This document shows, piece after piece, positions 4,220 through 8,825 of a DNA stretch of 8,825 nucleotides. How positions within the stretch are numbered: the stretch's first letter is position 1; every line of letters starts with the position of its first letter. The stretch comes from a virus (taxonomy: Duplodnaviria; Heunggongvirae; Uroviricota; Caudoviricetes): IMG/VR virus record IMGVR_UViG_2693429621_000011, one strand, 5' to 3'. Below the pieces are notes generated by a model. The model had not been told where the DNA came from. It ran no database searches and saw only the letters and a program-made list of their open reading frames with translations. Made by a program: the position numbers and the translations under genes.

Positions 4220-5335
4220 ATGAAAATAACGACAGTCGACGTATGCATAATTTGCGGAATTTTTCCGTTGCTGATTTTGCCCCAATTGCCTGGGACATTA
4301 GCCCTTGCGTTTCTGACTCTCTTCGCCTGCGTACTGGCATTTATACCTGTTAAAACCGTCCGTTATATCGCGCTGACGTTGCTGTTTTTCGTTTGGGGCA
4401 TATTATCAGCAAAGCAAATTTTGTGGGCAGGAGAAACCTTAACTGGCGCGACGCAGGATGCAATTGTTGAGATCACTGCTACTGACGGCATGACCACTCA
4501 TTACGGTCAAATTACTTATCTACAAGGTCGACGTATATTCCCTGCGCCAGGCCTTGTGCTGTATGGCGAATATCTTCCGCAAGCGGTTTGTGCCGGACAA
4601 CTGTGGTCAATGAAACTCAAAGTTCGTGCCGTTCATGGTCAACTTAATGATGGCGGCTTTGATAGCCAGCGTTATGCCATTGCCCAGCATCAGCCGCTCA
4701 CCGGCCGCTTTCTGCAGGCAAGTCTTATTGAACCGAATTGTAGCCTGCGTGCACAGTATCTGGCGTCACTACAAACAACGCTGCAACCCTATCCGTGGAA
4801 TGCGGTTATTCTTGGTTTAGGTATGGGGGAACGGTTATCCGTCCCCAAAGAAATCAAAAATATCATGCGCGATACTGGAACGGCGCATTTAATGGCGATA
4901 TCGGGATTGCACATCGCTTTTGCGGTGTTGCTGGCTGCCGGACTCATTCGCAGTGGACAAATTTTTCTGCCTGGGCGCTGGATCCACTGGCAAATACCAT
5001 TAATTGGTGGGATCTGCTGTGCTGCTTTTTATGCCTGGTTGACGGGAATGCAACCTCCTGCATTGCGTACCGTGGTGGCGCTTGCTACGTGGGGAATGCT
5101 TAAGTTAAGTGGGCGACAGTGGAGTGGCTGGGATGTATGGATATGTTGTCTGGCGGCAATTTTGCTGATGGATCCTGTTGCCATTCTCTCGCAAAGTTTA
5201 TGGCTCTCTGCCGCTGCGGTCGCGGCACTGATTTTTTGGTATCAGTGGTTTCCCTGTCCTGAGTGGCAACTTGAGATAGCCGCAGAAGTCCACCAGCGAA
5301 TCGCCCTCGCGTTTTATCACCAGAGCTTCTTCTGA
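4220..5335 (+). CDS. ycaI: ComEC-family inner-membrane protein YcaI, N-terminal ~370 codons only; reading frame ends prematurely where foreign DNA begins (probable disrupted gene or pseudogene fragment)
   Basis: ORF 4142..5335; likely start is ATG 4220 with SD GGGAGGAG upstream (MKITTVDVCIICGIFPLLIL...); multiple hydrophobic helices; full-length E. coli YcaI is about twice this length; its last ~20 codons overlap the 3' end of the opposite-strand primase-like gene. Confidence 0.7.
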   Translation: MKITTVDVCIICGIFPLLILPQLPGTLALAFLTLFACVLAFIPVKTVRYIALTLLFFVWGILSAKQILWAGETLTGATQDAIVEITATDGMTTHYGQITYLQGRRIFPAPGLVLYGEYLPQAVCAGQLWSMKLKVRAVHGQLNDGGFDSQRYAIAQHQPLTGRFLQASLIEPNCSLRAQYLASLQTTLQPYPWNAVILGLGMGERLSVPKEIKNIMRDTGTAHLMAISGLHIAFAVLLAAGLIRSGQIFLPGRWIHWQIPLIGGICCAAFYAWLTGMQPPALRTVVALATWGMLKLSGRQWSGWDVWICCLAAILLMDPVAILSQSLWLSAAAVAALIFWYQWFPCPEWQLEIAAEVHQRIALAFYHQSFF

Positions 5336-7095: not shown

Positions 7096-7416
7096 TTATC
7101 TCAGATTTGAATCAGTATTCGCTTTCTCTATGGCATTTAATGCATCTGTGGCATTTTCAATGGTGCACCGTAACGAAATATCAAACTGCCCAAGCATTGC
7201 CAGTAACAAGCCAATATTACCCATGTCAATGCGCATAGCCTTTTCGTCATATTCCTCATTTTCTGACGCATGCCACATCAGGCTACCAATTGACGCAACA
7301 GCCATTGATATATTGTCAGTAGCCCCATCCGCAGCGGAATAAACCTTTTTAGCAATATCATGCTCACAGTTAAAATGCGGATTAATCAGGTACTGGTAAT
7401 TGGTCATGTCAGGCAT
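7096..7416 (-). CDS. Hypothetical protein, 106 aa, first long gene of the leftward operon
   Basis: ORF 7096..7458; best start is ATG 7416-7414 preceded by a perfect SD AGGAGG with 6-nt spacer; acidic small protein; no recognisable motif. Confidence 0.6.
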   Translation of the reverse strand: MPDMTNYQYLINPHFNCEHDIAKKVYSAADGATDNISMAVASIGSLMWHASENEEYDEKAMRIDMGNIGLLLAMLGQFDISLRCTIENATDALNAIEKANTDSNLR

Positions 7417-7606
7417 GGCACACCTCCTGACGAATACGGGCGGCGAATACAGCAACACAACCTGACGGGCAACGGTTACGCGCTTCGCGTTCCGTCCAGG
7501 CGGTTACGTGGATGATTTGAGATTCTCCGGCACTCAGGGCCAGAAAACGCCACACAAAGGCCGTTTGTGTGTGTACAAGGTGTGGTATATGATTTACGGC
7601 AACCAT
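7409..7606 (-). CDS. Candidate small leader ORF (65 aa) in the operon leader; ends 5 nt inside the start of the 106-aa gene
   Basis: ATG 7606-7604 preceded by SD GAGGAG with 5-nt spacer; stop TGA 7411-7409 overlaps the ATG at 7416-7414 of the next gene (ATGCCTGA); contains the hairpin at 7551-7571; an antisense ORF with SD-like sequence also exists, so the call is tentative. Confidence 0.3.
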   Translation of the reverse strand: MVAVNHIPHLVHTQTAFVWRFLALSAGESQIIHVTAWTEREARNRCPSGCVAVFAARIRQEVCHA

Positions 7607-7708
7607 AACGGCTCCTCGTTTACGTTGTTGGTTAGAAGCCCTGCGAGTGGTAACGACACTTGCGGGGCTTCGTCGTTTCAATTGCTGAATTGCATGTATC
7701 AGCACTTG

Positions 7709-7763
7709 TGGTATTCACATTACATTTAGGTGAATACCATTTCAAGTCTTTTTTGGTATTCAC
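7709..7763. promoter_or_regulatory. Candidate operator array / RNA switch: 10-bp motif TGGTATTCAC at 7709-7718 and 7754-7763 (direct) and its exact reverse complement GTGAATACCA at 7730-7739; overlaps a putative leftward promoter (-35 TTGAAA, 17-bp spacer, -10 TAATGT on the minus strand)
   Basis: Three exact 10-mers within 55 bp of the divergent intergenic region between the leftward replication operon and the rightward RHH gene. Confidence 0.5.
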
Positions 7764-7806
7764 TTTTGTATTACACTGCATCCCGTTATTAATGGGAGGT
7801 GCAAAC

Positions 7807-8112
7807 ATGTCCAGGAGTTCTGTTAACAATAAGTCACAGCAACTGAATGCCAGATTTCCACATGAAGTAGTGAGTGGCATTGAGGCATCCCTACAGCCAG
7901 GGGAAACTAAAGCGAATTTTATAGTTACGGCTGTACGCGGTGAGATCGCCAGGCGCCAGGCAGAAGGAAGTGGAGAAAATCCCCTTGTGTCTTCACTGGA
8001 TGCCCTAGCTAATGTCGAACAAATCGGCATCAAGGCAGCGGAGGAAATCGGGCAGCTTATCACCGTTGCACGCGAAGAACTCCAGCGCCGCAAGGCCAAA
8101 GAATCAGAATAA
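7807..8112 (+). CDS. Putative ribbon-helix-helix DNA-binding regulator (resembles YlcI/YnfO-like prophage proteins), 101 aa
   Basis: ORF 7660..8112; best start is ATG 7807 with SD GGGAGGTG 7 nt upstream; N-terminal pattern NARFPHEVVSGIEASL...ANFIVTAVRGEIARR fits a beta-strand/helix/helix (RHH) DNA-binding fold; acidic C-terminal tail. Confidence 0.6.
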   Translation: MSRSSVNNKSQQLNARFPHEVVSGIEASLQPGETKANFIVTAVRGEIARRQAEGSGENPLVSSLDALANVEQIGIKAAEEIGQLITVAREELQRRKAKESE

Positions 8113-8169
8113 TCACTATCAGCGCCGTGGTGTGAGGAACTCCGGCGCATTGCTTTACAGGCGCACACA

Positions 8170-8346
8170 ATGACCAACGAAGAATCAACCAAAAAAACAT
8201 CACCTGCACGAAAAAGACGACGCAGAAAGAAAGAGCATGAATCAGAACGATTCGCGCCGTGTTCTTTTGCCCTTGAGAAGTACCTTAAAGAATACTCATC
8301 AAAGGAGAGAGCTTCGCAGTTATGGCAACGCACTGAAACAGACTGA
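8170..8346 (+). CDS. Possible small basic protein (58 aa); the frame is ambiguous, with an alternative 50-aa ORF in the +1 frame at 8237..8389
   Basis: ATG at 8170 with Arg/Lys-rich N-terminus (KKTSPARKRRRRKK); no convincing SD; below the length cutoff of the supplied ORF track. Confidence 0.2.
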   Translation: MTNEESTKKTSPARKRRRRKKEHESERFAPCSFALEKYLKEYSSKERASQLWQRTETD

Positions 8347-8410
8347 TAGCATTGCCCACCAGCCTGATAGCGGCTATCATTGACATGCTTATGTTTAGTG
8401 TTTCCAAACT

Positions 8411-8438
8411 GGCGACCGCCCCAGGTCGCCTTTGTTTT
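8411..8438 (+). terminator. Rho-independent terminator: stem GGCGACC/GGTCGCC (8411-8417 / 8424-8430), loop GCCCCA, then TTTGTTTT
   Basis: Perfect 7-bp GC-rich stem followed by a T-run; ends the rightward RHH transcription unit just before the convergent alpA-like gene. Confidence 0.65.
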
Positions 8439-8457
8439 ATGTGTCATATGCTCCCCT

Positions 8458-8667
8458 TTACACTGCCTTACCTGAATTAATGCGATCCCGGCTTTTAACC
8501 CATTCCATAACCTCGGACAGCAGCCACCCTACAGAACGACCGCCCAGATTAAGACGTGACGGAAAGCGCCCTTTTTTCTCCAGTTCGTAACGTGTAGTGC
8601 GGCACACTCCAGTTAACTTACGACATTCATCCTCACGGATTACGCGATCTTCATTTATTTCACGCAT
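8458..8667 (-). CDS. alpA: AlpA-family prophage transcriptional regulator / excisionase-like helix-turn-helix protein, ~69 aa
   Basis: ORF 8458..8754 begins with a GTG that abuts its own SD-like AAGAGG, so the internal ATG at 8667 is preferred; core VIREDECRKLTGVCRTTRYELEKKGRFPSRLNLGGRSVGWLLSEVMEWV matches the AlpA/Vis-type pattern (..TG.SR.T.Y.....G.FP....LG.R.VGW...E...W). Confidence 0.65.
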   Translation of the reverse strand: MREINEDRVIREDECRKLTGVCRTTRYELEKKGRFPSRLNLGGRSVGWLLSEVMEWVKSRDRINSGKAV

Positions 8668-8825
8668 ACAAAAACCTACATAAAAATTACGTATATAAAC
8701 TTTTCTCTTAGCTGTAGATATATGAGATCGGATATTACTTAGATTCTTTTTCACCTCTTAAATTAAAAACACAACCATGCTGGTAATGACTCCAACTTAT
8801 TGATAGTGTTTTATGTTCAGATAAT

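Follow-up and report, generated by a model that had tools for sequence, protein, structure and literature searches.

A candidate ribbon-helix-helix repressor, its small partner gene and a long antisense reading frame in the probable regulatory region of an EcCICFT073-type satellite island

An 8,825-nucleotide stretch of DNA classified as viral (IMG/VR record IMGVR_UViG_2693429621_000011; Duplodnaviria; Heunggongvirae; Uroviricota; Caudoviricetes), which we refer to in its full length as the window, raises the question of what a short rightward transcription unit does between alpA and the leftward replication operon of a satellite island. The unit begins with a gene encoding a putative ribbon-helix-helix (RHH) protein, continues with a small gene, orf58, and, as the original prediction made from this sequence had stated, converges on alpA, a member of the activator/excisionase family (8458-8754, minus strand; Pfam Phage_AlpA, E=2e-16). 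Comparison with ~190 related loci collected for this analysis indicates that the window probably harbors the regulatory region of an EcCICFT073-type phage-inducible chromosomal island (PICI), composed of an RHH repressor, orf58 and an antisense open reading frame (ORF) resembling eta of P4, and operating as a two-state switch. The antisense ORF, 271 aa long (7632-8447) and extending over the whole unit, had been missed in that prediction.

The RHH gene encodes a 101-aa protein (7807-8112, plus strand; ATG at 7807, TAA at 8110-8112) and is preceded by the Shine-Dalgarno (SD) sequence GGGAGG, read from the sequence at 7794-7799, 7 nt ahead of the ATG, in agreement with the strong SD originally attributed to it. 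The protein passes the cut-off of the YlcI/YnfO family hidden Markov model (NCBIfam NF041551, YlcI_YnfO_N; 60.3 bits versus 30, E=1.3e-16, residues 9-50) and matches phrog_6522 (E=2e-46), and variability at the three codon positions among E. coli homologs (0.13/0.07/0.50) presents the signature of plus-strand coding. Its layout consists of an Arc-like N-terminal domain (residues ~8-52), a 42-aa helix-hairpin-helix (HhH)-like insertion and a basic tail. An hhalign comparison of a 16-allele RHH profile with P22 Arc aligned the N-terminal arm, the strand and helix A, pairing QLNARFP with the base-contacting strand of Arc, QFNLRWP, through the common motif Q-x-N-x-R-(F/W)-P. The same profile also aligns with a second class of RHH alleles ending in RGIEPKG, itself below threshold for Pfam Arc and HicB, and one allele (L172) matches Pfam DUF3950 (E=1.6e-6). 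The AlphaFold2 (AF2) monomer model presents helices at residues 19-28 and 35-52, with G32-E33-T34 between them. Altogether, the protein probably adopts an Arc-like RHH fold.

The evidence for a regulatory role of this protein comes from its upstream region. The repeat TGGTATTCAC occupies 7709-7718 and 7754-7763 and recurs in inverted orientation at 7730-7739, amounting to three exact copies where 0.41 are expected by chance (allowing at most one mismatch), and 0 shuffles reached the observed number. The first putative operator (O1, TGGTATTCAC, 7709-7718) lies over the -10/start region of a candidate leftward promoter (7717-7745, minus strand; -35 TTGAAA at 7745-7740, 17-nt spacer, -10 TAATGT at 7722-7717), the inverted one (O2, GTGAATACCA, 7730-7739) lies in the spacer of this promoter, directly after its -35, and the third (O3, TGGTATTCAC, 7754-7763) is located just upstream of the candidate -10 of the RHH promoter (TACACT, 7772-7777), assigned by eye and by alignment with the TATACT of other alleles. 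A leftward TTGA(C/A)N-N16-18-TANNNT pattern is present at the same place in 24/26 unique upstream regions.

Across the related loci, each N-terminal type of the RHH protein is accompanied by its own 8-10 bp motif, present in 2-4 copies within the upstream 150 nt and most often at around -100, -75 and -30 from the RHH ATG. Examples include GAAACACA, GTAAGACA, GTCAGCCA, GGATTCCA and GAATCACA, the window belonging to the GGTATTCA type. At the O1 position, each of the other RHH alleles has a repeat specific to its type, and in the 24 upstream regions with the leftward promoter pattern the type-specific motif directly follows the -35. One such comparison is provided by loci L059 and L157, the proteins of which are the same from GMESVKLDGES on and differ in the N-terminal arm and strand, with operators GAAACACA and GAATCACA, respectively; judged by their sequences, these two alleles act as a natural domain swap. 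This covariation is consistent with a repressor that acts allele-specifically on the replication operon and controls its own gene as well, and the comparison of alleles makes the repressor idea well supported, with DNA binding and repression by the RHH protein inferred from it. Given the location of O1 and O2 on the leftward promoter and of O3 at the RHH promoter, repression of the operon running from an Icd/Kil-like gene to the primase gene, together with autoregulation, is predicted. The RHH protein, originally named as the best candidate for the element repressor acting on the 7709-7763 repeats, remains a good one in view of both the covariation of type and repeat and the overlap of the repeats with a conserved leftward promoter.

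Opposite this unit, the eta-like minus-strand ORF (ATG at 8447, stop at 7634-7632) starts 10 nt past the alpA stop, behind GGGGAG, and runs antisense to the RHH gene, the spacer following it and orf58, sharing wobble positions with both genes. The frame is open in all 74 variants of the RHH-orf58 pair and in 141/141 unique haplotypes, spanning 186-516 codons where the contig holds the whole frame, and is fused in frame to the Icd/Kil-like domain in 84 of the 141; in seven further genera, too, no stop interrupts it across the RHH gene. It begins 53 nt past the alpA stop in EcCICFT073 and 14 or ~57 nt past it in other alpA types, and in Yersinia an ATGA stop-start overlap joins it to a preceding 172-aa gene. 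Together with the 10-nt gap to alpA in the window, this overlap suggests translational coupling.

An antisense frame that shares wobble positions is also the one most prone to long shadow ORFs, and the minus-strand ORF could be a mere shadow of plus-strand coding, or a Bro/Eta-type fossil with no present function, in which case the RHH-orf58 cassette would be a plain divergent repressor unit. The portion antisense to the cassette matches no protein family, and the ORF is often marked as a pseudogene by the Prokaryotic Genome Annotation Pipeline (PGAP), as could be expected of a shadow. Synonymous resampling given the RHH protein sequences yields openness probabilities of 0.14-0.86 per allele, which are compatible with such an origin, but the joint probability over 11 allele clusters is ~1e-5, and the frame stays open over unrelated RHH alleles and across genera. 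Furthermore, it is open in almost all unique sequences across stretches without plus-strand coding: it contains 0.18 stops over the 150 nt preceding the RHH gene, versus 3.6 and 4.1 in the other minus frames, and 0 stops over the spacer and the 99 nt that follow orf58 (the latter counted over 44 unique sequences), versus 0.56-3.8. The adjacency of its start to the stop of the upstream gene and the in-frame Icd-like fusion in 84/141 haplotypes also speak against a shadow, which we regard as an unlikely explanation. Since the frame is open through non-coding stretches as well, and in view of the parallel with P4 eta, selection for the translatability of the alpA read-through transcript is inferred by analogy. 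Protein family searches with the minus-strand ORF returned matches at the Icd-like end only, plus weak Bro-N/antirepressor-like N-terminal matches in one locus (L015), and where the ORF overlaps the core of orf58 the constraint falls on the plus frame.

The small gene following the RHH gene, orf58 (8170-8346, plus strand), encodes a basic protein of 58 aa and had been proposed as one of two overlapping small ORF candidates. The comparison of reading frames across relatives, suggested at that time as a check, came out in its favor: the ATG and the frame are intact in 89/89 unique haplotypes (57-67 codons), and internal indels are multiples of 3. In the core of the gene (8233-8295, EHESERFAPCSFALEKYLKEY), Fitch changes by codon position number 16/2/38, and dN/dS is 0.09 in the plus frame versus 0.26 in the minus frame. 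Homologs at ~45% identity preserve ER(F/Y)xPCxFALE(K/Q)FLK with conservative replacements, the divergent homologs P0147 and P0150 keep the core, and the protein matches phrog_21027 (E=8e-13). Its relatives comprise 11 clusters only, among 1.8 billion cluster representatives (50% identity); all homologs with a source name are from Escherichia/Shigella, the best protein match of the 58-aa ORF being a Shigella sonnei protein (98% identity).

Alternatively, orf58 could be untranslated and owe its conservation to constraints imposed by the minus-strand ORF, an RNA element or a DNA element; the minus frame shares its wobble positions and is open in all haplotypes. In line with this, constraint is weak on the N-terminal part with its many Arg and Lys residues (dN/dS 0.58), codon periodicity is missing from the C-terminal tail, in which a few database members frameshift, and the SD in the window is weak (AGG, 8 nt upstream). 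Coding on the minus strand, however, predicts the opposite of the pattern observed in the core, where second positions have changed 2 times and first positions 16 times; the lower dN/dS in the plus frame, the intact frame of every haplotype, the motif retained by distant homologs and the presence of AGGA 7 nt before the ATG in most haplotypes, including the main one, all point the same way. An untranslated orf58 hence appears improbable, slightly more so than a shadow origin of the minus-strand ORF, and on these sequence comparisons orf58 is a real gene. The second candidate, originally described as a 50-aa ORF at 8237-8389, is in fact a 48-aa ORF (8237-8383, plus strand). Though open in most haplotypes, it was rejected as coding on its substitution pattern, in which variability peaks at the second codon position; a number of database proteins enter it by a frameshift within their variable C-termini. 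AF2 models orf58 (mean pLDDT 72) as a disordered basic arm, rich in Arg and Lys, and one long helix (residues 29-57), and our guess is that the protein is most likely an accessory modulator binding a nucleic acid or protein partner.

The two genes form a conserved cassette. The gap between them measures exactly 57 nt, in the same frame, behind RHH alleles of 43, 57, 59, 65, 101, 103 and 106 aa, and the divergent homolog P0150 again lies 57 nt behind a 59-aa RHH gene. The spacer contains a conserved stem-loop (8121-8147, plus strand; minimum free energy of about -18 kcal/mol in the main haplotypes), which varies too little for covariation to be demonstrable. The terminator that had been assigned to the RHH unit was recovered by a scan as a plus-strand intrinsic terminator of the RHH-orf58 transcript at 8411-8440, with a stem-loop at 8411-8430 followed by TTTGTTTTAT; it sits within the first codons of the minus-strand ORF, and in locus L001 a G.U pair preserves the stem, and the loop is different. 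A fusion of the two in-frame genes by stop read-through was also considered and rejected as unlikely, since the spacer is interrupted by an in-frame stop in 26 loci.

The pairing of an RHH protein with a small partner had led to the suggestion of a toxin-antitoxin (TA)-like pair, which in its type II form would make orf58 the toxin and the RHH protein an autoregulating antitoxin in an addiction module. The conserved pairing, now defined by its exact gap, stands, and its gene order, as well as the weak, sub-threshold resemblance of RHH alleles to antitoxins (PSK_trans_fac, E=0.018; HicB, E=0.0035), is what such a pair would present. The TA interpretation itself does not fare as well. orf58 has no toxin-family match in Pfam, NCBIfam, PADLOC or the PDB and is modeled as a disordered arm with a single helix; RHH genes lacking an orf58 companion are found in Klebsiella, Yersinia, Pectobacterium, Dickeya, Proteus, Morganella and Citrobacter, so that the two are not inherited together; a fixed 57-nt gap with a hairpin takes the place of the usual gene overlap; the putative operators lie on the promoter of the replication operon besides that of the cassette; and the cassette is found nearly always within islands, at 1689 chromosomal versus 3 plasmid places. 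The fixed gap with its hairpin, the solitary RHH genes and the lack of matches for orf58 therefore weigh against a TA pair, which we deem very unlikely. Finally, the notion that the minus-strand ORF alone is real, as an Eta/Bro-network protein, with the RHH gene and orf58 both spurious, can draw on O157:H7 strains, for which PGAP calls just a 247-aa minus-strand protein in a variant without a YlcI-type RHH match, but is scarcely tenable in the face of the above-cut-off family match of the RHH protein, the conservation of second codon positions in the plus frame of both the RHH gene and the orf58 core, the covariation of RHH type with operators, the strong SD of the RHH gene and the plus-strand terminator.

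The interpretation that we favor, an RHH repressor cassette facing a translated antisense frame, would operate as follows. The RHH protein, as the allele-specific repressor of the island, would bind the three TGGTATTCAC copies; occupancy of O1 and O2 would block the leftward promoter of the operon encoding the Icd/Kil-like protein, DUF4222 and the primase, and occupancy of O3 at the RHH promoter would provide self-regulation. orf58 would be co-transcribed with the RHH gene, in a transcript ending at the 8411-8440 terminator. Leftward transcripts from the alpA promoter would need gapless translation to escape Rho-dependent termination, and AlpA-driven transcription could thereby bypass RHH repression and collide with RHH-orf58 transcription, which would result in a two-state switch. 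AlpA of Pseudomonas is a processive antiterminator (PMC7969949, PMC9371919), and antitermination by AlpA might be relevant for reading through the 8411-8430 hairpin.

A number of observations weigh against this interpretation, in addition to the poorly constrained ends of orf58. The hhalign match of the RHH profile to Arc has P=4e-4 and a probability of just 35%, and all matches of RHH alleles to Pfam Arc, RHH_5, HicB and PSK_trans_fac are sub-threshold. The AF2 monomer renders residues 8-14 as a low-confidence helix in place of a strand, and Foldseek searches of the PDB with this model, which forms no strand, found nothing usable; the fold assignment is therefore probable and not proven. No match to orf58 was obtained in Pfam (best E=0.048, 13 bits versus a cut-off of 27), NCBIfam or PADLOC, the last of which returned none for five island proteins, and a PDB sequence search with the orf58 profile returned nothing. 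The -10 of the leftward promoter in the window (TAATGT) is weak, falling below the threshold of a consensus scan, and the minus-strand ORF of the window is out of frame with the Icd-like gene, its stop lying 20 nt short of the ATG at 7612. The need to translate this ORF is argued by analogy with P4 only, and an Rfam scan of the whole window (E<=1) found no C4, isrK or CI-type RNA, and nothing in this region. Lastly, the primase gene is truncated (~5270), and the module may hence be out of use in this strain.

Additional features of the locus concern the same genes. The 101-aa form of the RHH protein corresponds to the 59-aa form with a 42-aa insertion between RRQ and RRKAKE (residues 52-93; window positions 7960-8085). 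In a PDB sequence search with the RHH profile this insertion presented a weak likeness to the HhH of Hef (PDB 1x2i, E=0.019), and the search yielded nothing beyond this match; tblastn searches of GenBank phages with the RHH protein and orf58 returned no match. The longest ORF in the RHH frame opens at TTG 7660 (150 aa, 7660-8112), and the 173-aa database protein P0025 is extended in like manner. The additional N-terminal residues, encoded across the operators, are probably spurious; ATG 7807 is the start favored by PGAP and by the SD. The long database proteins P0025, P0130, P0141 and P0143, considered as RHH fusions, were rejected as frameshift products or as ORFs extended too far upstream. 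In some islands the cassette is duplicated in tandem or in part, with either a second truncated RHH gene and an orf58-like gene or an orf58-like gene without a called upstream RHH gene (L017, 1706-2957; L192, 2501-3625).

With regard to the minus-strand ORF, the loci with the commonest alpA type (L034 and L121) have it open with MKIEY(T/A)PERG, and in L142 it opens with MNTGYSPEQG after a short hairpin; its first residues may be conserved as protein in some lineages. Public annotation of the ORF is inconsistent, presenting it as a 247-aa or 428-aa protein, as an 'Icd-like' or 'hypothetical' pseudogene, or not at all (L001, 4379-4828; L002, 4033-4776; L021, 1581-2138; L188, 2101-3387), and sometimes omitting the RHH and orf58 genes too. 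The minus-strand ORF is also a source of conflicting RefSeq annotations.

Between the operators and the Icd-like start, a G+C-rich hairpin with a T-rich tail is present on the plus strand (7635-7680; hairpin 7635-7671). It is more stable on the plus strand in 56/56 unique variants (mean -23.8 versus -17.2 kcal/mol), with 138 G.U pairs. This hairpin may terminate an RNA of ~80 nt antisense to the Icd-like SD and ATG, for which a possible promoter was noted by eye (TTGTGT at 7565-7570, 17-nt spacer, TATGAT at 7588-7593).

In its wider context, the window combines chromosome and island. Up to base 5270 it consists of ordinary Escherichia/Shigella chromosome, containing ycaL, cmk, rpsA, ihfB and a truncated ycaI, and the rest is satellite island, with a minus-strand order of alpA, Icd/Kil-like gene, 120-aa ORF, DUF4222 gene and D5_N/DUF5906 primase gene. 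The Icd/Kil-like gene, first of the leftward replication operon, encodes 67 aa (7409-7612, minus strand; ATG at 7612; NF033153, E=1e-17) behind the SD GAGGAG (7626-7621), PGAP gene calls for its homologs being 198-207 nt long. The 120-aa ORF (7096-7458, minus strand), in the slot between the Icd-like and DUF4222 genes, has no family match, and the small genes at this place differ between islands. The layout is that of EcCICFT073-type PICIs, with alpA followed by a co-oriented operon containing DUF4222 and the primase in the same order as in CFT073; int falls past the end of the window. At the junction near 5270 (5198-5335), the comEC-like ycaI directly abuts the truncated primase gene. None of the complete E. 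coli genomes spans this junction, each matching one side or the other, which indicates that the island is truncated there; its distal part was probably lost by deletion. Gram-negative PICIs are widespread, the 901-bp region being matched in 1306/5426 complete E. coli genomes.

Among known systems, type II TA modules with RHH antitoxins (ParD, CcdA, RelB, CopG-like) share with the cassette the RHH gene in first place, the small partner in second and a probable autoregulation. They differ from it in that the cassette has no toxin homology, a partner that is dispensable in other genera, a fixed 57-nt gap and operators on the promoter of another operon. A family relationship exists with the YlcI/YnfO family (NF041551; DUF3950) of the E. 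coli prophages DLP12 and Qin, whose model the window protein passes. A literature search retrieved no description of a Gram-negative PICI repressor and no function for YlcI/YnfO, and the operator covariation, as a sequence-based result, gives this family a testable function.

The immI region of P22, with Arc and Mnt, resembles the window in its small RHH repressors with an N-terminal strand and in its short repeated operators over opposed promoters, an arrangement that in the window is proposed. The Q-x-N-x-R-(F/W)-P strand motif is common to Arc and the window protein, and in both regions a downstream gene is co-transcribed. In contrast, the match to Arc is sub-threshold, the downstream gene encodes a 58-aa basic protein instead of the 300-aa antirepressor Ant, the long RHH allele of the window has an HhH-like insertion and the window cassette lies antisense within another ORF.

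In P4, an ORF (8812-8168) follows the alpA homolog ORF88, with kil nested in the 3' end of eta. The same succession of an alpA/vis homolog, a long ORF with a Kil/Icd-like 3' end and a primase operon is found in relatives of the window and in EcCICFT073. The long ORF of the window differs in ending 20 nt before the Icd-like ATG, in-frame nesting being present in 84/141 relatives and in EcCICFT073. Moreover, P4 immunity is conferred by the CI RNA, whereas the window has a candidate protein repressor with allele-specific operators, and C4, isrK and CI RNAs were undetected with Rfam. The link between P4 kil and the Icd-like protein is drawn from family profiles only; no alignment was obtained by BLASTP between the Icd-like protein and the old P4 'cI' ORF of 137 aa, the 3' end of which is read as kil. 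To our knowledge, no genes antisense to eta have been described in P4. Translation of eta reportedly prevents Rho-dependent termination of transcripts started upstream. One published account (PMC10111431) states that eta translation prevents termination, and no more than that, and describes this island zone just as Bro-network genes and immunity RNAs. The region of the window may be envisaged as joining an immunity region of the Arc/Mnt type to the eta/kil layout of P4. A frame kept open for ~200-500 codons antisense to two real genes, while no protein is conserved beyond its Icd-like end, would constitute a clear instance in nature of selection acting on translation as such.

The proposed role of the RHH protein also recalls that of the Stl/Rpr master repressors of Gram-positive PICIs (SaPIs), in which the repressor gene stands opposite the excision/replication operon, with operators in the promoter region between them. 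Stl proteins are inactivated by helper-phage proteins; as far as we know, they are much larger than the RHH protein of the window and are not RHH proteins. For Gram-negative PICIs, the founding paper (PMC6092414) reported induction through AlpA as the only known activator and considered a global repressor 'unclear'. In EcCICFT073, the alpA-like gene is followed by an orf58 homolog (C_RS30800), a 59-aa YlcI/YnfO gene (C_RS30120) and an Icd-like gene (C_RS30125), and a 428-aa ORF running from 53 nt past alpA is antisense through both small genes and has an Icd-like end. The locus tags of the small genes apparently stem from a later re-annotation, and the founding paper (PMC6092414) makes no mention of them. 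The EcCICFT073 cassette thus offers a concrete candidate repressor, operators and promoter targets for Gram-negative PICIs, and allele-specific pairs of RHH proteins and operators, if true, would explain immunity groups among co-resident islands. More tentatively, and with somewhat less than even confidence, we propose that Enterobacterales satellites make use of both strands over ~800 bp. An allele-specific Arc-like repressor would be encoded on the plus strand, joined in Escherichia/Shigella by a small basic protein, and the minus strand would be kept translatable, without constraint on its protein, to let AlpA-driven transcripts escape Rho and arrive at the replication genes. The two convergent units could then be the missing switch between repression and induction in Gram-negative PICIs, with the RHH protein as the long-sought counterpart of Stl.

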